A DNA stretch of 64,000 nt from a virus (IMGVR_UViG_3300031260_000038:1-64000), one strand, 5' to 3'; shown: positions 21,943 through 38,138, counted from the stretch's first letter. The notes: a model not told the origin generated them from the sequence alone. A program made the numbers and translations.

Positions 21943-22374
21943 ATGAATAAAGTTAAGATTAAATATTTTGATAAAGAAATAGACAAAATTGAAAAAATTA
22001 AAATTGGCAATTGGATTGACCTAAGAAGTGCTGAATCAATTTCTTATAAGGCAGGAGATTTTATTAAACTTTCTTTAGGTATAGGAATGAAGCTACCAGA
22101 AGGATATGAAGTTAATATAGTGCCTAGAAGTAGCACATTTAAAAATTATGGCGTTATTCAGACTAATTCTTTTGGTGTAGTTGATAATAGCTATTCTGGT
22201 AATGGTGATTGTTATTTTTTTGTCGGCTATGCTCTAAGAGATGGGGCTATCAATAAAAATGATAGAATTTGTCAATTTAGACTTAATAAAGTCATGGAAG
22301 ATATTGAATTTGAAGAAGTTGAATATCTTGACGAAATTGACCGTGGTGGTCATGGAAGTACAGGTAAACAATAA
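21943..22374 (+). CDS. dut: trimeric dUTPase
   Basis: IDLRSA, PRSS, GVVDNSY.G, RICQF, RGGHGSTG. Confidence 0.92.
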   Translation: MNKVKIKYFDKEIDKIEKIKIGNWIDLRSAESISYKAGDFIKLSLGIGMKLPEGYEVNIVPRSSTFKNYGVIQTNSFGVVDNSYSGNGDCYFFVGYALRDGAINKNDRICQFRLNKVMEDIEFEEVEYLDEIDRGGHGSTGKQ

Positions 22375-22395
22375 TAATAGAAGCGGAGACAGCAT

Positions 22396-23232
22396 ATGCA
22401 CGTAGGATATAAAGAATTTGTTCTTAACAATGATGACTTGGCAAGGTTTTATCAGGAATTTGTAGATTTAGGTCTTAAATATAACGAATATTTAGTTTTA
22501 GCAGATGAAGAAGGCAAGGTTCTTGATGTTAAAAAATTTAAGGGAGACCATTATGACAATATTTCAAAACATTCTCTTAAAACAGCTTTCTTTGATGAAA
22601 TAAAGCCTAAAGATGTATATCAAAGAATGGCAATAGATAGCCTTTTCAATGACCAATTTACAGCCATAACAGGTAGTGCGGGGTCTGGTAAGTCACTATT
22701 CTCTCTGGCTTATCTTATGAGACAAATAGAAACAGGAAAGCTTGATAAGATAGTTATTATGTTTAATCCTGTAAAGACAGCGGGAACAAAAGATATGGGT
22801 TTTTATCAGGGTTCATTTGAAGAAAAAGCACTACAGCAGTCTATAGGTAATATGCTTATATCTAAATTTGGTGACAAGAGTTTTCTTGAGCTATATCTTG
22901 CACAGGGGAAAATAAGGCTTGTATCTATGGCTGATGGCAGGGGCATGGAAATAGGCGATGGACAGGCACTGTATATAACAGAAGCACAGAACACTACAGC
23001 AGAAGTTATGGGTCTATGTCTATCACGTGTGTCTGATAAAGTAAAAGTAGTTATAGAAGGTGATTATTGTACACAGGTAGACGATAAGTGTTATACAGGG
23101 TCTAAGAATGGTCTACATGCCGCCATAGAGCTGTTTGCAGGAGAAGATATGTTTTCATGTGTTCAGTTTAAGAACGTGTACAGAAGCCGTATAGCCGACA
23201 TTGCGAGCAAATTACTAAGGAGTGATTCATGA
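22396..23232 (+). CDS. phoH: PhoH-family ATPase
   Basis: GSAGSGKS, GFYQG, GRG, ITEAQN, R...KVVIEGD..Q.D, YRS.IA. Confidence 0.85.
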   Translation: MHVGYKEFVLNNDDLARFYQEFVDLGLKYNEYLVLADEEGKVLDVKKFKGDHYDNISKHSLKTAFFDEIKPKDVYQRMAIDSLFNDQFTAITGSAGSGKSLFSLAYLMRQIETGKLDKIVIMFNPVKTAGTKDMGFYQGSFEEKALQQSIGNMLISKFGDKSFLELYLAQGKIRLVSMADGRGMEIGDGQALYITEAQNTTAEVMGLCLSRVSDKVKVVIEGDYCTQVDDKCYTGSKNGLHAAIELFAGEDMFSCVQFKNVYRSRIADIASKLLRSDS

Positions 23233-23312
23233 TATATTTAATTTTGTTTGTGGCAGGAATTATTTTTGAAAAATTATTTTCACCTTTAATTGATATGATT
23301 ACAGAATATTGC
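23229..23312 (+). pseudogene. 5' part of a small membrane-protein gene apparently interrupted by the TnpB2 element
   Basis: RBS AAGGAG, ATGA coupling, MIYLILFVAGIIFEKLF...EYC; runs into the element's left end. Confidence 0.45.
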
Positions 23313-23348
23313 GGAAAGCCACTTCTTTAGGTGTGGGATGGATAGCAC

Positions 23349-23377
23349 TTGACAACATGCACATTATGTGATATAAT
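23349..23377 (+). promoter_or_regulatory. consensus sigmaA promoter for tnpB2
   Basis: TTGACA-17-TATAAT with TG extension. Confidence 0.8.
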
Positions 23378-23383
23378 GTAAGT

Positions 23384-24865
23384 ATGAACACGAAATTATT
23401 TTATACAAACAGTAAAAAAGAGGTAAACACTTTGTCAAATTTTATTCTAACTTTAAAGTTAAATGCTGAGAAATATCAACAAGACATACTGGATAAACGA
23501 CTAGATATAAGCAGAACGATTTATAATAGTTGTTTGGGCGAATTATTTAAAAGATATAACACCATGAGACAATCTAAGGAATATCAAAAAACACTTAAAA
23601 TGACAGCAGGAAAAGAAAGAAATAAAAGGTTTAATGAATTAAATAAAAAATATGGATTGACAGAGTATTCACTTCACGAATTTGTTAAGCCTGTACAACA
23701 TCATTTTAAAAACAACATAGACAGTCACACGGCACAAAAAATCGCAACAAGATGTTTTAACGCTTTTCAGAAACTAATGTTTTATCAATCTAAAAAAGTA
23801 TGTTTTAAGCGGCATGGAGAAATGAACAGTGTTGAAGGAAAATCCAATAAGTCTGGTATAAGGTTTAAAGACAATAAACTAATATGGAACGGATTAAAAA
23901 TAGACGTAATAATTAAAAATAACGATAAATACACACAAATGGCACTAGGAAATAACATTAAATATTGCAGAATCGTTAGAAAACTAATTCGTGGAAAACA
24001 TAAATATTATGTTCAGCTAATATTAGATGGAGTGCCACCAATGAAAATTAACAGACACACTGGCGAAATTAAAAACGGCATAGGCAATGGAAAAGTTGGT
24101 ATTGATATTGGAACAAAAACCGTGGCATATGCTAGTAAATACGAAGTCAAGCTGTTAGAACTAGCACCAGAGATAAACAACATAGAAAAAGAAAAACGCA
24201 TACTTCAAAGAAAGTTAGATAGACAGCGTAGAGCCAATAATCCTAATAATTACAACGAAAATGGTACTGTTAGGGTTGGCGGTAAATCAGCAAGGTTAAA
24301 ATGGACAAAATCTAAAAAATATATTAAAACACAAAATAAATTAAGAGAAATCCAACGCAAGCAAGCCGATATAAGAAAACAATCACACAACAAGTTAGCC
24401 AACCATATTGTTTCATTGGGTAATGAAGTATACGTTGAAACTATGGATTATAAAGAGCTTCAATCTAGGGGTAGAAAAACAAATATTAATAAGAAAAGGT
24501 TTGGCAAATCATTAGCTAACAAAGCACCAAGTATGTTTTTAACTATATTGGACAATAAGTTGAAATGGCACAATAAACGATTGTTAAAAATAAACACCAT
24601 AAAGATTAAAGCAAGTCAATATAACCATGTGAAAGATGAATATATTAAAAAAGACTTGTCTGATAGGTGGAATGATTTTGGTAGTTTCAAAATTCAAAGA
24701 GATTTATATAGTAGTTTTATAATAATGTGCACTAAAGATAACCTAAAAGAAACAGATAAAAAGCTGTGTATCAAAGAATTTGAAAATTTTAAAATGCTAC
24801 ACGATATCGAGATTAAAAGAATAAAAAACAGTAAAAGTAAAACAATATCTAGTATGGGGATATAA
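23384..24865 (+). CDS. tnpB: long TnpB (493 aa)
   Basis: RuvC I GIDIG, II YVETM, III QRDLYS; bridge helix R.KLDRQRRANNP.NY. True start may be the TTG near 23431. Confidence 0.88.
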   Translation: MNTKLFYTNSKKEVNTLSNFILTLKLNAEKYQQDILDKRLDISRTIYNSCLGELFKRYNTMRQSKEYQKTLKMTAGKERNKRFNELNKKYGLTEYSLHEFVKPVQHHFKNNIDSHTAQKIATRCFNAFQKLMFYQSKKVCFKRHGEMNSVEGKSNKSGIRFKDNKLIWNGLKIDVIIKNNDKYTQMALGNNIKYCRIVRKLIRGKHKYYVQLILDGVPPMKINRHTGEIKNGIGNGKVGIDIGTKTVAYASKYEVKLLELAPEINNIEKEKRILQRKLDRQRRANNPNNYNENGTVRVGGKSARLKWTKSKKYIKTQNKLREIQRKQADIRKQSHNKLANHIVSLGNEVYVETMDYKELQSRGRKTNINKKRFGKSLANKAPSMFLTILDNKLKWHNKRLLKINTIKIKASQYNHVKDEYIKKDLSDRWNDFGSFKIQRDLYSSFIIMCTKDNLKETDKKLCIKEFENFKMLHDIEIKRIKNSKSKTISSMGI

Positions 24866-25112
24866 AATCCATATAGGTTTTGATACGAGCCTAATGCTAT
24901 CGTTAAAGTAATTCATTAGAATATGCTTAGATAGTGAAAGCCTTAGAGAAGATAATTAGTTTTTATATGTTGTAATAATTCTTGAAATTATGAGAGTATA
25001 GAAGAAGTTATAATATCTAAGAACCCTACTGCTTTAGCCGTAGGAGTATCAGAAATGGGATTTCATTGTGATGCACAAGGAGAAGAGATAGAAAGCGAAG
25101 GAGAGCCGATAG

Positions 25113-25283
25113 ATGAACAAGTGTGATAAATGTATGTTTCTTTATACATATTATTCTGAAAGAGAAAATAAATATAAAATAATGTGTGATTATCATGGAA
25201 AAGAAATAGAAAAGATAAAAGACAAAGATTCTTGTAAATACGCCCTTTATAGAAACGATGTAATAAAGAAGAGGAAATATTAA
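25113..25283 (+). CDS. small Cys-containing protein (56 aa, not in ORF track)
   Basis: RBS GGAG; MNKCDKC...C...C; stop coupled to the thyX start. Confidence 0.5.
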   Translation: MNKCDKCMFLYTYYSERENKYKIMCDYHGKEIEKIKDKDSCKYALYRNDVIKKRKY

Positions 25284-25909
25284 TGATAAAAATAGAACGT
25301 GCTCAAGTATTTGGTATTGATAATGCTTTATATGGCATGCGGCTACCAAAACAATCTAATGATAAGGGCGATAGTTATTGTGATGATGGTATATTTTTTA
25401 TTGGTGATAATGACCTAAAGCTTGCACAAACACTAATTAAAGCAGGGTCAGACCATAGAAAGTTTCTTAGGCAGATTTCTGTAAGTATGGCTATAACAGC
25501 CCCGAGATATTGGTGGTCTGAAATGGACACTTATAAAGTGGCTACAGCCGCCAATAGCGAAAGCACCATGCACAGACTAGCTCAAACACCAATAACAAGA
25601 GATTGTTTTAGTTTTGACAGTATTGAAGACTTGTATTATTTAATGGAAGAATCTTTTGAAGACTATGTGCAAGATTGTGAACGTTTAAGATTAAATTATC
25701 TTGAAACAAAAGATAAAAGATATTGGAGAGCATTAATACAAATGTTACCTTCATCATGGAATCAAACAAGAATGTGGTCTGGTAATTTTGAAGTTTTATA
25801 TAATATTATTAATGCAAGAGATAATCATAAATTATCAGAATGGCCTGATTTTATAGCGGAAATAAAAGATTTACCATATGCGAAAGAACTATTATTTTTT
25901 AATAAGTAA
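25283..25909 (+). CDS. thyX: FAD-dependent thymidylate synthase-like protein
   Basis: GSDHRKFLRQ, APRYWWSEMDTYK, NSESTMH, LPSSWNQ, RDNHKL.EW. Confidence 0.8.
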   Translation: MIKIERAQVFGIDNALYGMRLPKQSNDKGDSYCDDGIFFIGDNDLKLAQTLIKAGSDHRKFLRQISVSMAITAPRYWWSEMDTYKVATAANSESTMHRLAQTPITRDCFSFDSIEDLYYLMEESFEDYVQDCERLRLNYLETKDKRYWRALIQMLPSSWNQTRMWSGNFEVLYNIINARDNHKLSEWPDFIAEIKDLPYAKELLFFNK

Positions 25910-25927
25910 AAATGGCATAAAAAAATT

Positions 25928-25959
25928 GGGAGAACAGTTTAATTACTGTTCTCCCTTTT
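25928..25959. terminator. bidirectional terminator at the junction of the two genome arms
   Basis: GGGAGAACAGT-loop-ACTGTTCTCCC flanked by A- and T-runs between convergent genes. Confidence 0.8.
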
Positions 25960-25964
25960 GTTGT

Positions 25965-26111
25965 TTATATTGTAGGTATTATTTCTTCAAGATAGCCACG
26001 AATGGTTATAGCCACGGCTACGTCTCCACCTACAGCTTCTGCATAGGCATCAAATGTAGTTCCTTCTGGAAACACAAGTGGCAGTTCTAATGGAATATCT
26101 ACTAATTGGTC
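25965..26111 (-). pseudogene. start-less 3' gene remnant (DQLVDIPLELPLVFPEG...IRGYLEEIIPTI)
   Basis: 48 open codons with protein-like composition, bounded upstream by an in-frame TAA 15 nt below the recombinase stop. Confidence 0.4.
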
Positions 26112-26128
26112 TTATAAAATCACCCTTC

Positions 26129-27109
26129 TCACGATATGTGATATTTAAAATGAGCCTCTTTTGCTCTGTGAGTTGAACTTGATATATATACTCTAGTTGT
26201 ATCTGCTGACCTATGTCCTAGGGCATCTTGTATATCTGAAAGCTCCATGCCAGCTTCGTGTGATAGCGTTGCAAATGTGTGTCTTAATACGTGCGGTGTT
26301 AGTTTTTTAGAAATATTTGTTTTAATACTTATGTTTTCCAAGATTTTTTGTATAGCCCTGTTAGACAAATTGCCATGTGGTTTTTTAAGAGAAACAAAAA
26401 GATGCTCTGAGTCTACATCACGCTGACTGAGGTATGTTTGCAAATAATACAAACATTTTTGTGACAAAAAGGTTATTCTTTCTTTGTCGCCTTTTCCTAT
26501 AACGGTTAGCGTTCCTTGGTCTAGGTTCAGACTAGACAATTTAGCGCCCGCTATTTCAGACAGTCTAGCACCAGTTGAATACATTACTTCTATTAGCGCC
26601 CTGTCTCTTATGTTTTCACAAGCATTTCTAATTTTTTCTAAATCTATTATATTTAATGCTTTTGGAAGTCTGACAGGCTCTTTAATTCTTGAAAATCCAA
26701 CCCATATGTTTTCTTTAACGTAGCCTTTGGTCAGCGCCCAGCCGTAGAATGTTCTAAGCACAGTGACGGTGTTGTTCTTAGAGGAATTTTTAATAGATAG
26801 CTGTCTAATGTATTCCATTGCGTCATTGGTTGATATTTCAGAAATATTGCTAAAAGAACTAAGAAATTTATTGATTAATATTTTTCTATCTTTTACTGTT
26901 AGTGTTGAATAGCCCGCATCTAACATATGTTGACAATACCCCTGAATGATGTCTTCTTTATTAGCTTCCACTATTTCTGAAAACACTTCTTTAACACTAT
27001 ATTTTTGCAATAATCTTTGAGCCACCATTCTTAGCAAGTTGTGGTCTGCCGCCGTGTCTAACATTCTAACTGATTCTACCAATTCGTTTATTAGTTTTTC
27101 TTTGGACAT
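26129..27109 (-). CDS. XerD-like tyrosine recombinase
   Basis: RDRALIEVMYSTGARLSE, GKGDK, HVLRH, LGH, TRVY. Confidence 0.93.
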   Translation of the reverse strand: MSKEKLINELVESVRMLDTAADHNLLRMVAQRLLQKYSVKEVFSEIVEANKEDIIQGYCQHMLDAGYSTLTVKDRKILINKFLSSFSNISEISTNDAMEYIRQLSIKNSSKNNTVTVLRTFYGWALTKGYVKENIWVGFSRIKEPVRLPKALNIIDLEKIRNACENIRDRALIEVMYSTGARLSEIAGAKLSSLNLDQGTLTVIGKGDKERITFLSQKCLYYLQTYLSQRDVDSEHLFVSLKKPHGNLSNRAIQKILENISIKTNISKKLTPHVLRHTFATLSHEAGMELSDIQDALGHRSADTTRVYISSSTHRAKEAHFKYHIS

Positions 27110-27133
27110 AATAGCACCATCCTTTCAGATGCT

Positions 27134-27162
27134 ATTATATCACAAAGATTTTGTTTTGTCAA
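27134..27162 (-). promoter_or_regulatory. consensus sigmaA promoter for the recombinase
   Basis: TTGACA-17-TATAAT with TG extension on the - strand. Confidence 0.85.
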
Positions 27163-27183
27163 GTGCTATTTCGCAATATGTGG

Positions 27184-27303
27184 CTATTGTGTAATAATTT
27201 CAACTTTTTCGCTTTCGGTTATTCTTCCGATTTCCACGAGGTTATTTAGATAAGCTTCGTCTATTTTTCCCATTTGGAACTGTAATTTCAAAAACCTTAT
27301 CAT
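27184..27303 (-). CDS. XkdX-like small tail-associated protein (39 aa, not in ORF track)
   Basis: MIRFLKLQFQMGKIDEAYL...GRITESEKVEII; TAATG coupling; GRIT.E motif. Confidence 0.6.
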   Translation of the reverse strand: MIRFLKLQFQMGKIDEAYLNNLVEIGRITESEKVEIITQ

Positions 27304-27572
27304 TAAAATCCACCCCCTAAAACATCCACCATCAGCATTTCCAAGGCTTCAAGGCGTTCTTCTGCCGTCGGTTCTTTTTGCCAGTATTTATCAAAATTTT
27401 CTTCTAATTCTGACAACGTAGCGGTTGTCTTAAAAGCCAGTTCATCGTATTCATAAAATGTCTGACCTTCTTCATTCTTGTATTCACGTTCGTTTTTCCG
27501 TAAATACACATCAGCATACTTTCCGATTGGGAAATAAGATATTTTAGGTTGTTTGGTAGTGTATTCTGCCAT
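27303..27572 (-). CDS. tail-fibre assembly/chaperone-like protein (89 aa) after DGR1 RT
   Basis: RBS AAGGAGG then MAEYTT...; C-terminal PTAEERLEALE coiled-coil motif typical of XkdW-like proteins. Confidence 0.55.
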   Translation of the reverse strand: MAEYTTKQPKISYFPIGKYADVYLRKNEREYKNEEGQTFYEYDELAFKTTATLSELEENFDKYWQKEPTAEERLEALEMLMVDVLGGGF

Positions 27573-28716
27573 TGTTTTCCTCCTTTTGGTATTGACTGAT
27601 ATAATTTTTACAAATATTAACAGCTTCAACTATTTTAAGTTTTCTTCTAATAAACCACGAGTTTGTGTGTTTATACCAACTATAAGCAGATATAATTTTC
27701 CGTGCGATATTTATATTAATTTTTCTTTTCCAGAATTTAACAAAAACACGTCTTGTTTTTAAAAATATTTTAGTTCTAATCGTTGTAGAGTTCTTTCTAA
27801 AAACAAATCCCATCATGTCTATCGGCTCATTGTTTGAAAGCTTGTTCGTTTTCCAGAAATCCTTAATATCTAACAGCAATTCTTCCTTAAGGAATTTCTT
27901 TAACATTAGAAAGGCTCTTTTTACAAATTTCTTGTTTTTACCAGTCAAGATAAAGTCGTCCATATAGAATAAAACGTGTGTTATCAACCTCTTGCGAACA
28001 ACCCCTCTTTTAGTTCTTCTGACAGTGAATAATTTTTCGCTTGCAAAATGATAGGCATAAGACAAATAATAATTACACAAGTATTGAGATAAATATGAAC
28101 CAATTGAAAGACCGCCGTTAAACATTGATAATAATAATTTGAACAACCATATAAGCGTGTTGTTTTTAATATCTCTTTCCAAAAAATATATTAATTTGTC
28201 TTGTGGTATTGATGGGAAACACTTTACGACATCTCCTTTTATAAAATATTTTACTTCATTTCTATCAATCCACCTGCGTATAAATCTTTTGCCATAACAT
28301 TGTCCTTTATTGGGTAAAGATGCGCATTGAAATACTCCGATTTTTGCCATTAACATCTCTTTAGCACCCTCTATTGCGATATAATCACATATTTGGTGAA
28401 GTGGCGACTGAACCCCTATAGTTCTTTCTTTTTTGCACATATAATCGTACTTGGTGAAATATTGTATAGGTCTTAATTTCAGCGTCTTGTTTCTGATTTT
28501 GCCTGATAAATAATTAGCAATATTTAACACAATGCAATGTATTCTCGTGCGGTCGTTGTTCACAAAACCTGTTATCTCTAAATAACTATAATTTGAAAAT
28601 TTGCAAAACAATCTTCGCACATCTTTTCTGTTCCATTTTCTTTTTAAATATTTATATATGCAACTAACAATAAAATCCATGTTGCATATATCTATGTTTT
28701 TACAGTATCTTTTCAT
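27544..28716 (-). CDS. DGR reverse transcriptase 1
   Basis: KGDVVKCFPSI, DGR-type GLSIGSYLSQ, FYMDD, IDMMGF; adjacent to a TR/VR pair. Confidence 0.95.
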   Translation of the reverse strand: MKRYCKNIDICNMDFIVSCIYKYLKRKWNRKDVRRLFCKFSNYSYLEITGFVNNDRTRIHCIVLNIANYLSGKIRNKTLKLRPIQYFTKYDYMCKKERTIGVQSPLHQICDYIAIEGAKEMLMAKIGVFQCASLPNKGQCYGKRFIRRWIDRNEVKYFIKGDVVKCFPSIPQDKLIYFLERDIKNNTLIWLFKLLLSMFNGGLSIGSYLSQYLCNYYLSYAYHFASEKLFTVRRTKRGVVRKRLITHVLFYMDDFILTGKNKKFVKRAFLMLKKFLKEELLLDIKDFWKTNKLSNNEPIDMMGFVFRKNSTTIRTKIFLKTRRVFVKFWKRKININIARKIISAYSWYKHTNSWFIRRKLKIVEAVNICKNYISQYQKEENNGRIHYQTT

Positions 28717-28847
28717 TATGACCTTTCTAATAATGTCTCAATGGATTTCGCTAAACTACTAACCACTGCTGTAACGATTAATTTTACTTAGTTAAGTGAG
28801 CCGTGCCCGCTTAAAGCGGGGAGACTTGGCACATTGTTTTTTTATTA

Positions 28848-28960
28848 GATTGCCGGGGCAAGATATTCCAGTTCGAGTTCGTCAACGAGTTGTTGCCATT
28901 CAAGTAACGTAATCCACACTGAGCGTCATTGTTCAGATTACCGAAAGACTGCCATACCTT
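28848..28960 (-). repeat. DGR1 template repeat (TR1)
   Basis: 113-nt ungapped match to 29051-29163; all 25 mismatches are at TR adenines (coding strand); rich in AAY codons. Confidence 0.97.
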
Positions 28961-28982
28961 GCTGTGCCAAGAATCCTCTATA

Positions 28983-28998
28983 AGGGGTTGTCACCCCT
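28983..28998. promoter_or_regulatory. DGR1 post-IMH hairpin/cruciform
   Basis: AGGGGT-tgtc-ACCCCT just downstream of the target-gene stop. Confidence 0.7.
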
Positions 28999-29013
28999 CA
29001 ATGCTTCGCATTT

Positions 29014-30753
29014 TCACCCCAAACTACGCCTGCGGCTTCGCCCAGTTGCTGAAAGCCGGGGCAAGACATACCAGCCCGAGCCCGCCAACGAGTCGCTGCC
29101 AACCAAGCAACGCAATCCACACCGAGCGCCAACGCTCAGAAGACCGAAAGACCGCCACACCCTTGTACCAGTAACCGGAGAATTTGTATAGATACCATCG
29201 CCAAATCCAGTAGAAGAACCCGCTAATGACTCAACAGGCACAATTACAGATGGATTATTTTCGTCGATTGCTATTTTGCTAATATACTGCCAAGCGTTAT
29301 TTGTTTGTGTCAATTGATAACCAACTAAATCATAATTAGAAGTTATTGAAGTTGCGTAATTATGACAATCGTAACAAGCGTAAACTTCAATTTTGTACGT
29401 TCCGGTATTGTCGTTGTTGATTATCAAGTTTTGAATGACTTCATAACCACCAACCATCACTTCTATGCCGTTGATGATAAAGGGTTCTTTGCCTGATAAA
29501 TTGTTATAAGGCGAACCATCTTGACCGAGCACGTCATCACAGCCGCCGCTGTTCCAAGGCATTGTTGATATTTTAGTTGACAAGGTGGTGTCGAAAACAG
29601 CAGAATCCACATAGACAGCGCTGTTGCCATCGCCTAAATCTTCAATAGATGTTATTTTAACTCTATTTGCCAAGTCGTGAACGCTTGCGTTTGCTCTATC
29701 TGTCGTTGTAGCGTTGCCAACCGAAACAGTCGAACCAACAAGCAAGTAAGCGCCTTCTGCATTTGACACAACAACACGATTAACCCCGGTTTCCGCAACC
29801 CTATTGGAATACTGGGCATAGTAAGCCTGACAACCTTTCATCACATCGTCTGATATTGTTGTTGCGTATTTAAGCCACATCATCAACTGCACGTAAAAAT
29901 CATCGTGAGAAGTTTTGCCGCTATACTGAGCGCCTTTGGCGGCAAACGCTGTAATTTGTCCATTGTGGCTCATATTCACATATTCAGGATAAACACCGCT
30001 GATGGACGCAAGATTGTTACTTTCGTGTACGTTTCTTCCTGCGACATACTTAGCGAACAGCAAATAAGGTCTGATTGTTCCGTCGGGCTTTTCTGCCGGT
30101 TGTAGAATTTTGTAACCCTCGTATGGAAAATCAGTATACGAAACTTCCCAATAAGTGTCCGTAAATGTTACTTTAAAATACCCCGCCATCGCCATGATGT
30201 AGACATCGCCGTTCGTGCCGTCACGCCTGAAATTAGAATCGCCTTTTATTGCTGTAACGTGGTAATCGTCGTTTGCATCTACATGAGCGTTGACTTCAAT
30301 CGACCGAAACAGACCGATGTTTTCGTAGTCGTTTCTGCCTTTGATGGTGTTTGTTGACGGTTCACAGACAAGACCCATGCTATCATCAAGTTTTGTTCCG
30401 AGTGGTGACTGTGACACAGAGAACAGATTGAACCTTACAGTGTAGATTTTCCCTGTGCGTTGTGCATTCCAGAATCCACCTAATCCGATATACTCAGTAC
30501 CATTGAAATAAACATCGTTCACGTTTGACGCAATATCCGCCAATTGTGTATCTAGTTCATCTATTGCATCTTGTGTATTAGTAGCCGTAAGTCCACTTGT
30601 AGTATTATTATATTCTAAATCTATTGCTGACGCTTCTGCATAGCTACCTGTGCCATCACCTTTTAGAACGCCGTTTACGTCTCTCATTGTTTGCAACATC
30701 TCGCCATATTTAGTAGATGCTATCGGCTGACCATTATACATTAAAACAGCCAT
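29014..30753 (-). CDS. DGR1 target: tail/receptor-binding protein with C-terminal variable (CLec-type) domain
   Basis: VR1 lies in the last ~50 codons; PYLLFAKY and GIEVMVGGYE motifs; RBS AAGGAG. Confidence 0.85.
   Translation of the reverse strand: MAVLMYNGQPIASTKYGEMLQTMRDVNGVLKGDGTGSYAEASAIDLEYNNTTSGLTATNTQDAIDELDTQLADIASNVNDVYFNGTEYIGLGGFWNAQRTGKIYTVRFNLFSVSQSPLGTKLDDSMGLVCEPSTNTIKGRNDYENIGLFRSIEVNAHVDANDDYHVTAIKGDSNFRRDGTNGDVYIMAMAGYFKVTFTDTYWEVSYTDFPYEGYKILQPAEKPDGTIRPYLLFAKYVAGRNVHESNNLASISGVYPEYVNMSHNGQITAFAAKGAQYSGKTSHDDFYVQLMMWLKYATTISDDVMKGCQAYYAQYSNRVAETGVNRVVVSNAEGAYLLVGSTVSVGNATTTDRANASVHDLANRVKITSIEDLGDGNSAVYVDSAVFDTTLSTKISTMPWNSGGCDDVLGQDGSPYNNLSGKEPFIINGIEVMVGGYEVIQNLIINNDNTGTYKIEVYACYDCHNYATSITSNYDLVGYQLTQTNNAWQYISKIAIDENNPSVIVPVESLAGSSTGFGDGIYTNSPVTGTRVWRSFGLLSVGARCGLRCLVGSDSLAGSGWYVLPRLSATGRSRRRSLG
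29051..29163 (-). repeat. DGR1 variable repeat (VR1)
   Basis: 25 of 31 TR adenines substituted, no non-A differences. Confidence 0.97.
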
Positions 30754-30777
30754 TTAATCACTCTCCTTAAATTATAC

Positions 30778-30806
30778 TTGACAAATCCCTTATTTTGTGC
30801 TATACT
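30778..30806 (+). promoter_or_regulatory. sigmaA promoter for the recombinase
   Basis: TTGACA-17-TATACT with TG extension, then RBS AAGGAG. Confidence 0.8.
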
Positions 30807-30827
30807 AATTAAAAAAGGAGATTTGTT

Positions 30828-31688
30828 ATGATTGAAAATTTTTGTACTTACCTTTATTCTGTAAAAAACAGGTCACATAGAACGATAACTGAATATCGTT
30901 ATGACCTATTGCGTTTTGAAAAATTTATTGGAAAAGACCTAAAAGATGTAGATAGCGGCGACATTATTTCTTATCTAAAAAAGATGTCAGACGAAAAGAA
31001 GTCTAGTGCCTGTAGAGCTAGAAAACTAAGCTCTATTAAATCGTTCTACCGCTATCTACAAATGTTTGGTCATGTTACGGTCAGCCCCGCCGTAAACATT
31101 GGTACGCCCAAAATTGAAAAGAGATTGCCTAAATATTTATCCCTAGTCGAAGCTGTTAGGCTTGTTGATGTAGCCAAGCAAAACAAAGTTGAGTTTTACA
31201 GACTAAGAGATACCTGTATGATACAAATGTTTCTTAACTGTGGTTTGCGTCTATCTGAACTTGTTGAACTGCAACTGACAAGAATTAGCGGTGATAAAAT
31301 AGAAGTTATTGGAAAAGGCAATAAACAAAGATTTATTTATATGAACAATGCTTGTCAAAAAGCTCTTTCAGAGTGGCTTAATTACCGACAAGAATATTCC
31401 TGTGACTATGTTTTTAGCACGAAAAGAGATAACAAAATATCCAAAACAGCTGTTCAGTCAGTTATAAAGAATTATTTCAGAAAAGCTGGTCTTGACACAA
31501 CTAAATACCATGTTCACAGCCTACGACATACGTCTGCCACACTAATGTATCAGTATGGCAAAACAGACGTGCGTGTGCTACAACAATTTTTAGGACACTC
31601 TACGATAGAATCAACCATGATATATACTCACGTTAATGACAACCAATTAAGGTCTGCTGTTATTAACAATCCACTGGCTAACCTATAG
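30828..31688 (+). CDS. XerC-like tyrosine recombinase (opposite strand to the tail module)
   Basis: NCGLRLSEL, GKGNK, HSLRH, LGHS, TMIY. Confidence 0.93.
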   Translation: MIENFCTYLYSVKNRSHRTITEYRYDLLRFEKFIGKDLKDVDSGDIISYLKKMSDEKKSSACRARKLSSIKSFYRYLQMFGHVTVSPAVNIGTPKIEKRLPKYLSLVEAVRLVDVAKQNKVEFYRLRDTCMIQMFLNCGLRLSELVELQLTRISGDKIEVIGKGNKQRFIYMNNACQKALSEWLNYRQEYSCDYVFSTKRDNKISKTAVQSVIKNYFRKAGLDTTKYHVHSLRHTSATLMYQYGKTDVRVLQQFLGHSTIESTMIYTHVNDNQLRSAVINNPLANL

Positions 31689-31706
31689 GCGAAATCTTAA
31701 TTTGGT

Positions 31707-31808
31707 TCAATCTGAGTAATTAATTCCCGTGATAGACTTGTATTCTTCTTTTGTAATACGCTTCATTTTGACTAAAAATTTATACAACCTTATTTCAGCA
31801 TCGCTCAC
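31707..31808 (-). CDS. XkdX-like small protein (33 aa, not in ORF track)
   Basis: GTG start overlapping the upstream TGA; ...KRITKEEYKSITGINY motif. Confidence 0.7.
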   Translation of the reverse strand: MSDAEIRLYKFLVKMKRITKEEYKSITGINYSD

Positions 31809-32113
31809 TTAGCACCCCCTCCTGACAACAAAACTATTTCTGTTAAATCTGCCAACAATTGGTTTAACTGTTCATTCTCAATTTCTTCTTGCGTTTTTTG
31901 CCTCAATACTATCCATGATTTTCCGTCACGAATAATATTGGACAGCAGTTTCATGTCTTGATATGTTTCTATTTTTTCTCCGTCTGATATTTCTACCAAG
32001 GACAAGTTATTTTCAAAAATTGAATCTTCAATAACTTGTCTGGCAATATAATTGTTTCCGTTTAATTCAAGGTTTTCTATAATTGTTCCGTCTGCCAATT
32101 TTATGTGGTACAT
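31805..32113 (-). CDS. tail-fibre assembly/chaperone-like protein after DGR2 RT
   Basis: MYHIKLADGT..ENLELNGNNYI... with C-terminal LLADL coiled coil; same position as in DGR1. Confidence 0.6.
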   Translation of the reverse strand: MYHIKLADGTIIENLELNGNNYIARQVIEDSIFENNLSLVEISDGEKIETYQDMKLLSNIIRDGKSWIVLRQKTQEEIENEQLNQLLADLTEIVLLSGGGAK

Positions 32114-33288
32114 TGATTGACCCCCTTTAATTCGTTATATAAATTATTCATATTTGTTCGTTGCTGTCTGCTCATTAGTTTGTAGTGATTGTTGAACCAC
32201 GATGTAAACAAACACTCAAAATCTTTTTTGTCTAAAACAGGAGCAAGTTTTTTCATTTTTCTCCGCATTGCTGTTAGTCTTTTGGGATTTATTTTCTTTA
32301 TAATTCGACCTGTTTCTGTTAGCGAATATTGTATTTGCAAAAATCTCCAACAACTTGATAACTTGCAAATTCTTGTCTTTTTAGTGTTTATTGTGATTCC
32401 TATTTTTGTAGATTCCTCGACTATTTCTTTTAGCAGTGATTCTAAATAATTTTTATCTTGGTGAATTACATAACTGTCGTCCATGTACCTGCCGTATAGC
32501 TTTACGCCCTTAACAATTTTTATATAGTTGTCTAAGTCTTTAGGATAAGCTATGCCAGCAACCTGAGCTACTTGGTCGCCTATATTAAGATGCTTGTCCA
32601 TTATTTTGCCGCCAACACATAACGCTTTATCTATATTTTGATATTCTAAAGAGTTAAATAATTCTTGCATGCATACGGAATATTGTTCGTCACTCATATA
32701 GGAAACATCTACCCGAGACTTTTCAATAGCTTTTTCAAGAACCCATAAAGCGTCATTTTTAATTCCTATTTCTTCAAATATTTTTAGAAAATAATCGTGT
32801 CTTATATTGTCAAAGTATTTGCTGAAATCTATTAACAATATATATCCATCGTTGCTACCGTGCTTAGAGTAAAATCGTCTTAAATGTCTTTCAAACCTAT
32901 CCCTTGTAAAGCCAATACCCTTACCTTCTAAACTTGCTCCGTTATCATGTATAAGGTATTTTTTTATTACAGGAATCAACTCTTCTGTGCATAGACAACT
33001 TTTAACCACCCTGTCTCTTATGTGCTCTCCTGTTATTAATCTTGTTTTCCCTCTTTCTTTTAATATAAATTCTGAACCATCAGACAATTCAAACGTTCGA
33101 TTCTTTATAGATTTATAAGTTTCTGATATTTCTGGCAAAAACCTCATTTCATATTTTTGAACAGAGGCTTTCCAATCACTATTCTTCTTGGTCTTTTTAT
33201 AAGCTTTATAAAGATTATTAGAATTAAATGTTTCATGCTCACAGCTACAATTCTCGTAAGAAGTAGCGTCATGTTTAGTATTTACCAT
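32101..33288 (-). CDS. DGR reverse transcriptase 2
   Basis: RDRVV, GKG, LIDFSKYFDNI, IGDQVAQ, GRYMDD, FLQ. Confidence 0.95.
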   Translation of the reverse strand: MVNTKHDATSYENCSCEHETFNSNNLYKAYKKTKKNSDWKASVQKYEMRFLPEISETYKSIKNRTFELSDGSEFILKERGKTRLITGEHIRDRVVKSCLCTEELIPVIKKYLIHDNGASLEGKGIGFTRDRFERHLRRFYSKHGSNDGYILLIDFSKYFDNIRHDYFLKIFEEIGIKNDALWVLEKAIEKSRVDVSYMSDEQYSVCMQELFNSLEYQNIDKALCVGGKIMDKHLNIGDQVAQVAGIAYPKDLDNYIKIVKGVKLYGRYMDDSYVIHQDKNYLESLLKEIVEESTKIGITINTKKTRICKLSSCWRFLQIQYSLTETGRIIKKINPKRLTAMRRKMKKLAPVLDKKDFECLFTSWFNNHYKLMSRQQRTNMNNLYNELKGVNQCTT

Positions 33289-33349
33289 ACGGAAGGATAT
33301 TTTCTCCTTTCTTTAATGCAAATCGGTCAAATGCCTTTTTAATTGCAAA

Positions 33350-33440
33350 ATTGAAATCGGGACGCGCGCCAAGAGAGTAAGAAGCGTTGTTGTTGTTGGC
33401 ATTACCGTTGTTGTTGACATTGGCAAAGTTCGTCGATGAT
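33350..33440 (-). repeat. DGR2 template repeat (TR2)
   Basis: 91-nt ungapped match to 34061-34151; 16 mismatches at TR adenines plus 4 at non-A positions; translates NFANVNNNGNANNNNAS. Confidence 0.93.
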
Positions 33441-33460
33441 ATTAGAAAATACCCCATGGA

Positions 33461-33994
33461 TTAGTTGTTAAAATTTTTAGCAAACTTGTTGTCAGACTTT
33501 CTCCATCCTTTTATCAAAGATATCTCTTTTTCTATTCCATCTGAAAAACGTAAGTACTTATCAATATCAACTGGTAGCGTTTCAATTGCATATTGAAGCT
33601 CTTGTAGTAATCTGTTGCATTGACCTATCGCCCTATCCTGATGTATTCGCCTTTCAATCAATTCTTCTTTATAGTGAGGATAAATGCTGTTGGCTACAAA
33701 AATGTGTTCCTGAACACTTCTAAGACAGTCCATAACTGAATCTCTCTGGTCTATGATAAACCATTCTTCAAACGAGTTTGTCTTTTCCTTCCTATCATCG
33801 TAATGCTTCTTTTCCGCATCGTTTAATTCATGATATGGTCGTTTCCCAAATGTTTTTGCTAAATATTCTTCTGACTTCTTACTACTGTAGCCAAAATCTC
33901 TCAAAAGCAAGTCTGTTATCTCTTTTCTGACTTTATAAAAATGATGAAACACCTCAAATTGAGATTCTTTTCTTTTTCGTTTTACGACTGACAC
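33461..33994 (-). CDS. avd: DGR accessory variability determinant (Avd-like four-helix protein)
   Basis: Position between VR2 and TR2; MSVVKRKRKESQFE start, ANSIYP...RR..Q..AI, EI.LIKGWRKSD. Confidence 0.85.
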   Translation of the reverse strand: MSVVKRKRKESQFEVFHHFYKVRKEITDLLLRDFGYSSKKSEEYLAKTFGKRPYHELNDAEKKHYDDRKEKTNSFEEWFIIDQRDSVMDCLRSVQEHIFVANSIYPHYKEELIERRIHQDRAIGQCNRLLQELQYAIETLPVDIDKYLRFSDGIEKEISLIKGWRKSDNKFAKNFNN

Positions 33995-34031
33995 TTAATT
34001 TCTCCTTTTGTAAAATGTTTTAATTATCTAC

Positions 34032-34046
34032 GCCCCATAAAGGGGC
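34032..34046. promoter_or_regulatory. DGR2 post-IMH hairpin
   Basis: GCCCC-ataaa-GGGGC starting a few bases after the target-gene stop. Confidence 0.6.
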
Positions 34047-34051
34047 TTGAT

Positions 34052-35590
34052 TTAAGAAATACAGAAAGCGGGACGCACGCCATAAGAGAGAGAAGCGCCG
34101 TAGTTGCCGGCAAGACCGTCGTTGGTGACATAGGCAAAGGTCGCCGATGATGAAACATCTCTCAACCAATAGGATTGCCTCGTATTCACGGATTGTGGGT
34201 TTGATGCAAATAGTGGGAATTGCGATTTATCCACATATACATTATTCGCCAAGCTAGTCCCTTGCGTTGCGTTGCCATAATGCTTAGTGCCATATACATT
34301 AGCTTCAGTCATCAGTTCTACCGTTGAGTCATACCACGATCCACCACTTGTATACCCACTGGTTACCGCATTATGTAAATAGTTTCTATGACTTACCACA
34401 TGACCGCTAAAGGCGTTATTTATGGTGGTTTTTGCACTATTTAACCCAGATACATACATTTTGCTGCCAACATAAGCACCTGTTGTAATGTTAGTGTCAT
34501 TCATCACATGATTATACAGTGCTGTGTCTGGCACTATTACAGCGTGATTAGCGGTAAGCGCTGTATCGCCTGTATTGTGGTAATAATTGAAACAAGCTAT
34601 TCTGTAATTAATTCCACCGATAGTCCAATAGTCGCCAACATATAGGTCGTCAAATGTGCCGCTTGAAATGGCATTGTATTGCTCTGTTGTGACAGCCGAA
34701 CCTAAATATTTACCCCTGAATATAGAGTTGTGAAACCCTGCGCCACTTGAAATTGGTAGAACCAAATTAAGATTAGTGTCTAATTTATCAATTGAACTGG
34801 TAACAGTTTCACCATCTGTTACATAATTATTTTCTGTATAAAGCCTGTCACCAACATTGTCATTTGTGTCTTTTAATTCCATATCTAACTTGTCTATGCT
34901 TGCAGTTAAAGCTTCACCATCTGTTACATAATTTTCTTCAGTATAAAGCTGAGAACCTTTATCTTCACCTATTTCTTGTAAAGCATCTTCAACAGTGTTG
35001 CCGCTATAATATCCGCCGCCATCTGTTATACTTATTGTGTTAGCGTTGTTTATTAAAAGGTCTCCTTCTACATCTGTTATAATATATACTTGGTCTGATT
35101 CAATTTTACCCTGTGCATCAAGAGCATCATATTCAGCCTGAGTTAAATATATGGCTGTAATTTTATACCAACTGCTATCTGGTGGCCCTGCTTCACCGCC
35201 ACGCATTACATCAAATTTAATTTCACCGCTACTTATTCTTTCGTCTGCATCAGTAATTGTTATTTTTATTGTTACTTTACCTATAAAAGCAAACACAGCA
35301 GGATTTATTTGTAAAACTATTTCTCCATCAACTATATTTACATCATTACCAAAACTTTGGGTATATACAGGTTCACATTGATTCTCAATATAATAATGAA
35401 CATCAATTGTTTCTGTTGTAAGTGTTAATTTAGCGCCATTTTTTTGTACTTCAATATAAAAAATATTGCCATATAAATCACCACGACTAAAAAAAGGAAC
35501 AACATATTTATATGTTTGATTATTATATGGAGCTATAATATGTTTACCTGTATATAAATCAAGCCAAACTTTGTATTCTTTTTTAGCCAT
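34052..35590 (-). CDS. DGR2 target: BppU-like baseplate/fibre protein with C-terminal variable domain
   Basis: N-terminal BppU-like segment, TQAEYDAL fibre motif, IFRGKYLG...GDYW domain, ends YWLRD...GVRPAF (VR2). Confidence 0.85.
   Translation of the reverse strand: MAKKEYKVWLDLYTGKHIIAPYNNQTYKYVVPFFSRGDLYGNIFYIEVQKNGAKLTLTTETIDVHYYIENQCEPVYTQSFGNDVNIVDGEIVLQINPAVFAFIGKVTIKITITDADERISSGEIKFDVMRGGEAGPPDSSWYKITAIYLTQAEYDALDAQGKIESDQVYIITDVEGDLLINNANTISITDGGGYYSGNTVEDALQEIGEDKGSQLYTEENYVTDGEALTASIDKLDMELKDTNDNVGDRLYTENNYVTDGETVTSSIDKLDTNLNLVLPISSGAGFHNSIFRGKYLGSAVTTEQYNAISSGTFDDLYVGDYWTIGGINYRIACFNYYHNTGDTALTANHAVIVPDTALYNHVMNDTNITTGAYVGSKMYVSGLNSAKTTINNAFSGHVVSHRNYLHNAVTSGYTSGGSWYDSTVELMTEANVYGTKHYGNATQGTSLANNVYVDKSQFPLFASNPQSVNTRQSYWLRDVSSSATFAYVTNDGLAGNYGASLSYGVRPAFCIS
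34061..34151 (-). repeat. DGR2 variable repeat (VR2)
   Basis: Aligns to TR2; encodes the last ~30 residues of the target. Confidence 0.93.
34781..34948 (-). repeat. internal 105-nt (35-aa) period duplication in the DGR2 target
   Basis: LYTEENYVTDGEALTASIDKLD / LYTENNYVTDGETVTSSIDKLD. Confidence 0.8.
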
Positions 35591-35593
35591 GAA

Positions 35594-35968
35594 TTATCTA
35601 CCTACTTTCATTTTTATTTCTGTAGAACTAAAAGCTTGTTCGTTAATTTCATTATGAATAAAAACTTTAATATAATAACTACCAATTTTAGCCGTAGTTA
35701 AATCTATTATTGCTTCAAAATTTGTATCTAAATCAAATATATATATTGGAGATTCTTCATCTTCATAATATAAATGTAATTTGCCTATATCATTAATATC
35801 ATAGAGATGGTCAACACCTTCTATATCAACCATCTCTATTTTTATCATTATAAAATCTCCAACATAGGCAAATATTTCATTATTGATTATATTTAACTCT
35901 TCATCTAAAATTATATTTTTGTTTTCATAAATATAAGGCTTTATAATATATTTTTTTATATTTGCCAT
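35594..35968 (-). CDS. hypothetical tail/baseplate protein
   Basis: In the tail operon; beta-rich sequence. Confidence 0.5.
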   Translation of the reverse strand: MANIKKYIIKPYIYENKNIILDEELNIINNEIFAYVGDFIMIKIEMVDIEGVDHLYDINDIGKLHLYYEDEESPIYIFDLDTNFEAIIDLTTAKIGSYYIKVFIHNEINEQAFSSTEIKMKVGR

Positions 35969-35980
35969 GTATTATCACCC

Positions 35981-36373: not shown

Positions 36374-36402
36374 TTTTTTATTCTCCTTTTATACATTGTT
36401 AA

Positions 36403-37599: not shown

Positions 37600-37615
37600 A
37601 GTTTATTCTCCTTTT

Positions 37616-38137: not shown

Positions 38138-38138
38138 A

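Follow-up and report, generated by a model that had tools for sequence, protein, structure and literature searches.

We describe a phage in which two unrelated DGRs act on two tail-fiber genes, both of them active, and in which one of the two fiber loci (slot 2) is probably a site-specific recombination locus of the Rin/shufflon type that carries a complete DGR (DGR2) as its cargo, with rec1, the recombinase gene at the other locus (slot 1), most likely being an integrase-type gene of the phage backbone. All positions refer to the window, i.e., the whole stretch of 64,000 nucleotides that was analyzed. The region can be read as two tail-fiber "tip slots", each made up of a constant fiber N-terminus, then a variable tip cassette, and lastly a gene for a tyrosine recombinase; in this phage, both carry an active DGR as cargo.

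Anatomy of the two fiber slots and their DGRs

A preliminary description of this DNA had listed, for each DGR cassette, a tyrosine recombinase gene behind it, and our annotation bears this out: all named genes lie on the minus strand in the order target2, avd, TR2, RT2, a 102-aa ORF, an XkdX-like ORF, rec2, target1, TR1, RT1, a small ORF, a second XkdX-like ORF, and rec1, except that rec2 is inverted (PF00589 E 1.7e-37 for rec1 and 2.2e-34 for rec2). The feature runs past the originally delimited 26129-32113, up to 34774 (second repeat arm) and 35590 (target2 start).

26129-27109, - strand: rec1, which closes fiber slot 1 and encodes a 326-aa Xer-like tyrosine recombinase
27184-27303, - strand: XkdX-like 39-aa ORF, final gene of the DGR1 cassette (TIGR01669 E 0.005, below cut-off)
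27303-27629, - strand: small ORF after RT1, likely start ATG 27572 (89 aa), without family match
27544-28716, - strand: RT1, reverse transcriptase of DGR1 (phrog_1423 E 2.2e-53, RVT_1 E 6e-9)
28852-28958, - strand: TR1, template repeat of DGR1 (107-nt repeat with VR1)
29014-30753, - strand: target1, a 579-aa tail fiber with VR1 at 29055-29161 (phrog_17147 E 1.3e-126)
30828-31688, + strand (inverted relative to its neighbors): rec2, a 286-aa armless XerC/D-like tyrosine recombinase
31693-31708, + strand: left arm of the inverted 16-mer, AATCTTAATTTGGTTC, located 4 nt past the rec2 stop
31707-31808, - strand: XkdX-like 33-aa ORF within the DGR2 cassette (TIGR01669 E 6.7e-6)
31805-32113, - strand: 102-aa ORF within the DGR2 cassette, no convincing family match
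32101-33288, - strand: RT2, reverse transcriptase of DGR2 (phrog_1423 E 1.1e-53)
33353-33440, - strand: TR2, template repeat of DGR2 (88 nt TR2/VR2)
33461-33994, - strand: avd, accessory variability determinant of DGR2 (phrog_3206 E 2e-6)
34052-35590, - strand: target2, a 512-aa tail fiber with BppU_N and DUF6273 matches and VR2 at 34064-34151
34759-34774, - strand: right arm of the inverted 16-mer, translated in frame as N-L-N-L-V where the stalk of target2 meets the tip

Both reverse transcriptases are of the DGR type (phrog_1423 E ~1e-53 each) with no similarity to each other, and each adjoins a TR/VR pair of 107 nt (DGR1) or 88 nt (DGR2). In both pairs, the mismatches between TR and VR fall almost exclusively on template adenines, the exception being a 14-nt patch of TR2 that carries non-adenine differences. 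VR1 and VR2 vary among related genomes precisely at these adenine positions (VR1 differs in L001 and L005), and both DGRs are therefore active. In the fibers that they diversify, residues 1-71 of target1 form a constant anchor that ends at the hinge motif IDELDTQL, and target2 consists of a constant N-terminus plus stalk (residues 1-277) and a tip (residues 278-512) whose DUF6273 (C-type-lectin-like) end carries VR2.

An avd gene is present in DGR2 and absent from DGR1. The 2 ORFs of around 100 aa had been labeled "chaperones" in the preliminary description, a label that we drop because neither of them matches any family. The protein encoded after RT1 is instead probably a DGR1 accessory protein, given that its relatives (36-37% identity) sit between target and RT in L248, L249, L251, and L253; conserved in RT1-type DGRs, this 89-aa protein may replace avd in DGR1. 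For the XkdX labels, the scores of 16.6 and 25.8 bits fall short of the family cut-off of 28.2. The 39-aa XkdX-like ORF is strongly diverged from its counterpart in L001.

Inverted sites and alternative cassettes in slot 2

The preliminary description could not make out inversion sites by eye. We found none above chance at rec1/DGR1, but at rec2/DGR2 an exact 16-bp inverted repeat encloses the whole DGR with every cis and trans part (VR tip, IMH, avd, TR, RT, and two small genes) and has no further copy in the 79-kb genome even when 2 mismatches are tolerated. In the window, L005, L088, and L090, both arms of the 16-mer code for NLNLV, and the copy next to rec2 is conserved 16/16 in L001, L005, and L238, even though the rec2 gene beside slot 2 in L238 has diverged to a pS of 0.62 and a dS of 1.3. 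L086 and L087 have it as well, and L088 has it twice, always with 16/16 identity; these were picked by protein homology and not by the motif, and their flanks are diverged. This identity despite diverged flanks and a rec2 dS of 1.3 therefore argues for selection on the site at the DNA level. Read outward, the left arm gives NLNLVQSE-stop in agreement with the start of the tip of protein P0132 (NLNLVQSELMPVSG...), and is therefore the remnant of a lost inverted tip. By itself, an exact inverted repeat of 16 bp is not unusual in 14 kb of such AT-rich DNA, since 38% of Markov shuffles contain one. A second exact inverted repeat, apparently meaningless, is also present in the same 14 kb.

What lies between the arms differs among relatives. 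The contig X6 (L005) has flanks 97.5-99.6% identical to those of the window and a rec2 identical at 100% of amino acids, and it swaps exactly the inter-arm DNA for ~681 nt that encode a 117-aa and a 116-aa tip in convergent orientation; each of them opens in frame at an arm, their stops are 9 nt apart, and there is no DGR. Both tips are genuine fiber C-termini because the tipB type follows contiguously after NLNLVQ in proteins P0131 and P0132 and the tipA type is found in P0123. A third tip type stands beside rec2 and the site in L238. Two or more alternative C-terminal segments, at least one of them silent and inverted, are found in L005 and L090, whereas the window holds only the three-codon remnant (QSE-stop). 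Judged from its sequence, slot 2 of L005 would be a switch of the Rin/Mu-G type in which inversion would swap the tip. The contigs of four runs and seven IMG/VR copies revealed neither inversion nor excision nor circular forms, and these sequences as well as L001/L002 all have the cassette in a single orientation; all are assembled consensus contigs, which drop minority forms. Excision is unexpected because the sites are inverted.

The DGR2 cassette itself recurs elsewhere. At 97.6-98.3% identity it is found in L092, L093, L096, L099, and L105, where 31693 is the exact start of homology and the neighboring DNA (holin, amidase, ERF, and DnaB) is unrelated to the window genome. The copies of lineage B match at 99.2% of amino acids in RT2 and 100% in avd, and the 102-aa ORF is 98% identical in other cassette copies. 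In X7, a contig of 3,097 nt spans 31693-34780 at a depth of 173 versus ~45 for the flanks, and in comparison to L001 the cassette is 94-100% identical versus 71-84% for rec2. On the stalk side, the homology with lineage B continues for 78 nt past the arm, so that this junction could come from homologous recombination. The comparison of cassettes across relatives that the preliminary description had suggested revealed three cassettes in slot 2 on related backbones and the same DGR2 in unrelated ones.

The enzyme at the edge of the slot, rec2, is intact, under purifying selection (dN/dS 0.11), and composed of PF00589 and SAM_1 (E 1.6e-16) domains with no others. Its whole length aligns to XerC/XerD models (E 1e-63 to 1e-67, under cut-off), its nearest non-phage relatives are chromosomal Xer proteins (45-46% identity), and it matches the armless XerD-like architecture reported for the Rin invertase (PMC6109161). 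An assignment as integron IntI was rejected, with integron-integrase models scoring 82-89 bits against a cut-off of 265 and with sites that are plain inverted 16-mers and not attC hairpins, as was a serine-invertase switch (Gin/Cin/Min), the adjoining enzyme being a tyrosine recombinase. We infer that rec2 is a candidate invertase or exchanger of slot 2 that would act at the 16-bp sites. The inverted-repeat pair also occurs with no recombinase in the available DNA of lineage B (11 kb beyond the arm) and L090 (5-6 kb on each side), and the rec2-less records, which are only 25-50% complete, contain no PF00589 or PF00239 except for an unrelated PF00239 insertion in G005; given these site pairs, rec2 is a candidate for the enzyme, and the sites may instead be served in trans.

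These site pairs, the Xer kinship of rec2, and the lack of observed inversion would all fit a coincidental neighborhood, in which the recombinases serve the whole phage (in lysogenic integration or in resolving dimers as Xer does), only homologous or illegitimate recombination at conserved hinges shuffles the tips and DGRs, and the 16-bp repeat combines a coding motif with the relic of a dead inverted tip. DGR hotspots between tail genes and integrase have indeed been described in Toutatisvirus (bioRxiv 10.1101/2024.10.15.618418), and this position is shared by the DGRs studied here. We nevertheless consider coincidence unlikely. A relic or coding motif leaves unexplained why a non-coding copy of the site next to a gene with a dS of 1.3 retains 16/16 identity, why codons are identical in fibers with ~39% identical tips, why opposed in-frame tips lie between arms with rec2 flush at one of them, and why homology between unrelated backbones breaks at the outer base of an arm. 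Nor did we find a lysogeny module, with no repressor among the ORFs scanned, or a prophage copy, the genome collection having been scanned with the slot 2 17-mer as sole query, which gave no copy in a fiber context. The genome has polymerase, RNR, and tRNA-repair genes.

Proposed mechanism and related systems

In our preferred reading of slot 2 as a site-specific locus, inverted, conserved, and asymmetric 16-bp sites bracket the tip, one in frame and the other 4 nt past the rec2 stop, and what they bracket is the self-contained DGR2 with its VR tip, IMH, avd, TR, RT, and two small genes. Recombination of these sites by rec2 would have different outcomes depending on the partners. Within one genome, the cassette would flip and leave a 280-aa tipless fiber (an OFF state); since the window has one tip only, inversion could not switch specificity but only truncate the fiber. 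With two co-infecting genomes, a double crossover involving both sites would trade the whole cassette between them, which would explain the same DGR2 cassette in unrelated phages with a junction exactly at the site. We tentatively raise the possibility, which we hold to be somewhat doubtful, that the 16-bp sites and their Xer-derived recombinase act together as a naturally occurring means of recombinase-mediated cassette exchange in phage tail fibers. If true, a phage with the site pair would gain a tip-plus-diversifier unit in one step from an unrelated co-infecting phage, and the DGR would then retune the acquired tip by hypermutation, resulting in a two-tier, horizontally portable host-range system. 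With other tips found in slot 2 of relatives, host recognition could change via cassette swap in addition to point hypermutation; for rec1, we see no such link. In the literature, we found no published case of a DGR nested in a fiber shufflon.

Asymmetric sites, such as the sfx sites of the R64 shufflon, favor inversion over deletion. Slot 2 resembles that shufflon (Rci, sfx) and the BV01-like tail-fiber shufflon (PMC13596623) in combining a tyrosine recombinase and short asymmetric repeats with exchange of an adhesin or fiber C-terminus, but it has a single site pair and a retroelement as cargo where those systems have several cassettes and many sites. A similar layout is that of the Rin shufflon in Bifidobacterium and Eggerthella prophages, where a constant N-terminal segment of the receptor-binding protein is joined to variable C-terminal segments that each follow a short asymmetric crossover repeat, and where the locus ends with a gene for an armless XerD-like tyrosine recombinase (Mavrich et al. 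2018, PMC6109161; PMC8778435). Slot 2 shares the constant N-terminus, in-frame crossover repeats, and armless tyrosine recombinase at the edge, but its 16-bp site is unrelated in sequence to the 11-bp rix, L005 has only two opposed tips, and the "variable segment" of the window is a complete DGR of 3.05 kb with no alternative tip and with inversion seen in neither contigs nor copies. Eggerthella has both Rin and DGRs, in separate prophage clades rather than one nested in the other. With its two opposed fiber C-termini between inverted repeats for one constant N-terminus, L005 is also similar to Mu G and P1 C (Gin, Cin) and to Min of p15B, but it has an adjoining tyrosine recombinase whereas the invertases there are serine enzymes that work with an enhancer and Fis. 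As DGRs, both elements resemble BPP-1 Mtd and the DUF6273-type DGRs of gut phages in their RT, adenine-specific TR/VR, and C-terminal lectin-like VR domain on a fiber, and DGR2 also in its avd. Unlike BPP-1 and Toutatisvirus DGRs, DGR2 has a conserved pair of inverted sites as its borders and behaves like a transferable unit, and the phage carries two unrelated DGRs, one of them without avd.

rec1 and fiber slot 1

The product of rec1 has a full Phage_integrase domain and matches the phrog_1 integrase (E 6.7e-50), and the gene is under purifying selection (dN/dS 0.06 versus L238) and preceded by a sequence match to a promoter of its own (TTGACA-N17-TATAAT at ~27133-27166). Its relatives (≤39% identity) lie mostly at prophage edges or beside lysins, and just one of the 80 loci has an RT in the vicinity, which favors coincidental neighborhood at this slot, as do the edges of the DGR1 cassette, which are gradual in comparison to L001, as in mosaics formed by homologous recombination. 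We conclude that rec1 most likely is a common backbone gene of the integrase type that lies beside a recombination-prone fiber slot, and not a mobilizer of DGR1.

The preliminary description had gone further and let each recombinase mobilize or invert its own DGR-fiber unit. For rec2/DGR2 this idea survives in part, with a cassette bounded by sites and polymorphic among relatives, but it is unsupported for rec1/DGR1. In its full form, rec1 would excise and integrate DGR1 at a direct repeat (27172-27208 / 30529-30565), each copy of which looks like a 7-6-7 dyad core site, and rec2 would do likewise with DGR2. In L238, which shares only residues 1-75 of target1, a GDSL-esterase tip replaces the DGR1 cassette, with breakpoints (27178 and 30541) inside both copies of the 37-nt direct repeat; L237 is missing the entire rec1+DGR1+target1 unit, and the RT1/TR1 core, 93-99% identical to L001 between flanks of 61-88%, would also fit. 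However, the direct repeat is just 73% identical and one of >60 chance-level families, no repeat in slot 1 exceeds chance or is att-like, 3 mismatches separate the two 6-bp spacers, and L238 is without the second half-site in its hinge copy. The 27178-30541 joint is not reported in the contigs of four runs, no high-identity DGR1 cassette was found in foreign backbones, and a recombinase accompanies 0 of 15 RT1-type DGR loci. We regard the full model as very improbable.

Neither recombinase is tied to DGR content: An identical rec2 stands beside the DGR-free two-tip cassette of L005, and rec1 (97.5% of amino acids) and rec2 (78%) flank the DGR-free GDSL fiber of L238; occurrence regardless of DGR content is what the preliminary description had named among the findings that would refute its model. 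The recombinases belong to the fiber slots and not to the DGRs. The target1 region is also GC-richer than its surroundings, as had been noticed by eye, with 0.444 at 29001-30000 versus ~0.30-0.34 nearby.

The setting of the two-DGR fibre region

The window comprises the initial 64 kb of one phage record of 79,098 nt (GC around 32%), and since CheckV puts the completeness of this record at only ~45%, the phage may be much larger. Functions of replication and nucleotide metabolism (DNA polymerase, DnaB-like helicase, RNR, RNA ligases, PNK, dUTPase, PhoH and transposase/TnpB-type genes) are encoded on the plus strand of positions 1-26,000. The late genes run on the minus strand from 64,000 down to 26,129, with the two-DGR fibre region as the tail end of this block, beyond the lysis genes:

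41312-46396, minus strand, tape measure
38139-41290, minus strand, Dit/Tal-like protein
36403-37599, minus strand, NlpC/P60-LysM-PG-binding lysin
35981-36373, minus strand, holin
30828-31688, plus strand, tyrosine recombinase rec2
26129-27109, minus strand, tyrosine recombinase rec1

Near-identical DNA was found in runs from subsurface, sludge, oil-facility and wastewater metagenomes, and a megablast search of 26000-36000 against GenBank phages returned no match.

All elements listed in the preliminary description (two targets, TRs and RTs, avd, the recombinases and the small genes) are present, and the C-terminal part of target1 is indeed GC-richer (0.444 vs ~0.32). The label "chaperone" found no family match for either small ORF, and XkdX is plausible for both with family-model scores below threshold. 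TR/VR differences are adenine-specific in both DGR pairs; across genomes, VR1 (among the window and the related loci L001 and L005) and VR2 (window vs L092, L093 and L096) vary at template adenines, so both DGRs are active. RT1 and RT2 share no significant BLASTP similarity and rec1 and rec2 are 24% identical; the two cassettes are not duplicates of each other.

Other mobile-type genes lie elsewhere in these genomes. A truncated third tyrosine recombinase (3-704, plus strand; phrog_1 E 9e-33, PF00589 E 4e-31) is cut by the record start. The transposase-type gene at 23384-24865 (plus strand; phrog_506) is a recently inserted mobile element that is missing from relatives in metagenome runs X6, X2 and X7, where contig joints skip 1525-1750 nt (23302-25053 in X6). 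In relative L233 (G005:C1:3366-6743), an insertion of ~2 kb at about 137-2109, between homologues of window 37616-38137 and 38139-40508, codes for a 221-aa serine recombinase.

The 16-bp inverted repeat and the fibre tips of slot 2

The preliminary description had proposed recombinase-linked DGR-fibre modules and had sought inversion sites by eye without success. For slot 2 such sites were found: The left arm IRL, AATCTTAATTTGGTTC, lies at 31693-31708, 4 nt beyond the rec2 stop, and its exact reverse complement IRR at 34759-34774, where it is read in frame as N-L-N-L-V (target2 residues 273-277). Enclosed by the arms are 3,050 nt that contain the VR2 tip, avd, TR2, RT2, a 102-aa ORF and the XkdX-like ORF, and thus all cis and trans parts of DGR2, while target2 has only its N-terminus and stalk outside. 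No other copies of the 16-mer with up to 2 mismatches exist in the genome. Taken alone, the repeat is not beyond chance: when the 14-kb region was shuffled (Markov-1), 38% of the shuffles had some exact 16-bp inverted repeat, and the region itself contains a second, apparently meaningless one. It is the comparison with relatives that gives the repeat its meaning.

When contigs of four runs were aligned to 22000-40000, a 46.6-kb contig of X6 (L005, recovered via fibre protein P0121) was found to join 31710 to 34760 with 681 other nt between. This contig shares 97.5-99.6% identity with the window in its flanks and has a 100% identical rec2 protein, and between the same arms (one of them 15/16) it carries two convergent tips with stops 9 nt apart. 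The constant N-terminus continues into tipA (117 aa), and tipB (116 aa) lies on the opposite strand; both tips start with NLNLV, read in frame from an arm. A tipB-type domain directly follows NLNLVQ in the longer fibres P0131 (39% identity) and P0132 (38%), over 100% of the query, and P0123 ends in a tipA-type domain, so both tips are genuine fibre C-termini. The layout of L005, with rec2 flush against one arm, is that of an inversion host-range switch. Read outward from IRL, the window itself encodes NLNLVQSE-stop where P0132 reads NLNLVQSELMPVSG..., a match showing that three codons of an otherwise lost inverted tip have survived. Further slot-2 variants occur in L238 (rec2 78% identical in aa), where the exact 16-mer after rec2 is followed by yet another tip end, and in L237 (rec2-like, 67% aa), where the gene is followed at a distance of 178 nt by a 14/16 match to the site.

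Several observations argue for selection on the DNA sequence of the 16-bp site. L086/L087 and L088, found by tipB protein similarity and not by the motif, preserve the 16-mer letter for letter in otherwise diverged coding sequence, and two inverted copies flank one tip in L088. The non-coding 16-mer next to rec2 is the same at 16/16 positions in the window and L238, though rec2 has diverged with pS 0.62, dS 1.3 and dN/dS 0.11. An IMG/VR scan with the bare 16-mer gave 26 loci, 11 of them in a slot-2-type fibre context; one of the 11, on the unrelated 29-kb phage contig L090, is another two-tip locus. Among metagenome contigs, a pattern of IRL plus cassette end had 0 matches and the bare 16-mer at least 120, with none of the matches listed in a fibre context; all 60 matches of a 17-mer of the site in 596 Gb of genome contigs were chance contexts, with no fibre-context or prophage copy and no host lead.

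No contig showed a flipped cassette, and assembled contigs drop minority forms; source sample X1, with three contigs only at depth 10-12, likewise contained no variant among contigs that cannot show such forms. When the protein collection was queried with target2 residues 1-285, the 100%-identical N-terminus occurred fused to tipA only, never to tipB. A flip in this phage is predicted to leave a 280-aa tipless fibre, so that inversion here could act only as an OFF switch.

Movement of the DGR2 cassette and the candidate enzyme

The DGR2 cassette also occurs in five IMG/VR contigs (L092, L093, L096, L099 and L105; here lineage B) at 97.6-98.3% nucleotide identity, with avd 100% and RT2 99.2% identical in aa. 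Lineage B is homologous to the window from precisely the outermost base of the arm (31693) to 34852, 78 nt into the stalk; past the arm come a holin and an amidase-LysM-SH3 lysin, followed by Gp157, ERF, replisome-organiser and DnaB genes, all without resemblance to this genome. Compared to L001, the cassette is 94-100% identical, rec2 71-84% and the N-terminal part of target1 70-88%. Such identity across diverged or unrelated backbones indicates that the DGR2 unit moved recently between them, and one junction of the moved unit falls precisely at the 16-bp site. In X7, the cassette forms a separate contig of 3,097 nt (31693-34780) at depth 173 vs ~45 for the flanks. The break at 31693 was considered as a sign of inversion and rejected, because the loose end matches the lineage-B stalk and, together with the depth, indicates several co-occurring backbones with one shared cassette in this sample. 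Two other X7 joints (27652-28951 and 31848-35940) had low support (sides of 21-30 nt) and were set aside.

Adjacency, conservation and architecture make rec2 (286 aa) the candidate recombinase of slot 2. The site pair is also present in lineage B and L090, with no tyrosine or serine recombinase in their available DNA (records 25-50% complete), and an enzyme acting on the sites might work in trans. A profile search for further rec2-type genes in IMG/VR retrieved L001 again and nothing else, and tblastn against GenBank phages found nothing above 36% identity. Outside phages, rec2 is closest (45-46%) to chromosomal Xer recombinases among housekeeping genes, a kinship matching the Rin invertase with its XerD-like, armless build (PMC6109161). 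Similar extended -10 promoter elements, TTTGTG(A/C)TATA(A/C)TA, were seen at rec1 (27133-27166, minus strand) and rec2 (30794-30807, plus strand), and the rec1 promoter (consensus TTGACA-N17-TATAAT) is conserved in L001 and L238; with such elements of their own, transcription of both genes seems not to depend on the late operon.

The two classic programmed routes to new phage receptor specificity, DGRs and invertible fibre tips, have been treated as separate in published work. Gin, Cin and Min are the classical serine-invertase switches. Tyrosine-recombinase fibre shufflons have been published for Rin in Bifidobacterium and Eggerthella prophages (PMC6109161, PMC8778435) and for BV01-like Phocaeicola phages (PMC13596623). 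Rin and DGRs are found in different clades in Eggerthella, and the DGRs of Toutatisvirus lie in a hotspot between tail genes and integrase (bioRxiv 10.1101/2024.10.15.618418). Our literature search found no description of a DGR inside a tip cassette bounded by recombination sites. Good comparative evidence suggests that slot 2 is such a cassette, exchangeable and Rin-like, with an entire DGR as its cargo and recombination activity that we infer. Natural variants have this slot refilled with a two-tip switch, a third tip type or a DGR, and the DGR cargo moves between unrelated phages. If the recombinase drives exchange, the spread of DGRs among phages as ready-to-use units would have an explanation, and a compact natural template would be available for receptor-binding modules that can be exchanged and diversify themselves. 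The 16-bp cis site and rec2 form a concrete, testable pair.

Slot 1, rec1 and accessory parts

Both slots are polymorphic across relatives (L005, L238, L237), as the proposal of mobile cassettes had it, and its tie between recombinases and DGRs did not hold. In L238, rec1 (97.5% aa) and rec2 (78%) flank a DGR-free 501-aa fibre with a GDSL/SGNH domain (L238:2250-3755, minus strand; no TR, RT or small genes), and in L005 an identical rec2 sits beside the two-tip cassette. The recombinases thus mark fibre tip slots rather than DGRs. The L238 fibre, whose tip is probably a receptor-modifying esterase, shares with target1 only residues 1-71, up to the hinge IDE(L/I)DTQL, and L237 lacks the whole rec1-DGR1-target1 unit. 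Replacement in one relative and absence from another show that slot 1 is likewise a replaceable cassette, this polymorphism being all the comparative evidence that slot 1 offers.

Both slot-1 breakpoints, 27178 and 30541, lie within copies of a 37-nt direct repeat (27172-27208 / 30529-30565); counting this repeat, there are over 60 families of similar kind. Reading it as a 7-6-7 dyad was not adopted, given 73% identity, unlike spacers and an incomplete hinge copy in L238; a match of 26079-26092 to the first target1 codons was rejected as not above background. Inverted or direct repeats around rec1 and DGR1 were limited to chance-level 14-16-mers with 2 mismatches, and comparison to L001 gives gradual boundaries of the kind seen in homologous-recombination mosaics. 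In 80 IMG/VR loci, relatives of rec1 (up to 39%) are mostly close to the ends of prophages or to lysins, with an RT nearby in 1/80, and none of 15 RT1-type DGR loci has a rec1- or rec2-like gene. We therefore treat rec1 as an integrase-type backbone gene without a demonstrated role in DGR1. A chimeric fibre (L239:5282-7078) combines target2-like stalk repeats with a target1-like C-terminal module from residue 63 (74% identity), which shows that modules are shuffled at the same hinge.

The small protein after RT1 (27303-27629, minus strand; likely start 27572) has relatives of 36-37% identity in RT1-type DGRs (L248, L249, L251, L253), where they sit between target and RT, the usual position of avd; it may serve the avd-less DGR1 as its accessory factor instead of acting as a fibre chaperone. 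In DGR2, the only TR2 difference among cassette copies (window, L002, L092, L093, L096, L099, L105) is a patch at 33360-33385 read as AAC TCT AAT, ACC TCT ATT or TAC TCT CTT. Except for one nearby G/T difference, its changes hit adenines of the AAC TCT AAT version, as if the template itself had been mutagenised.
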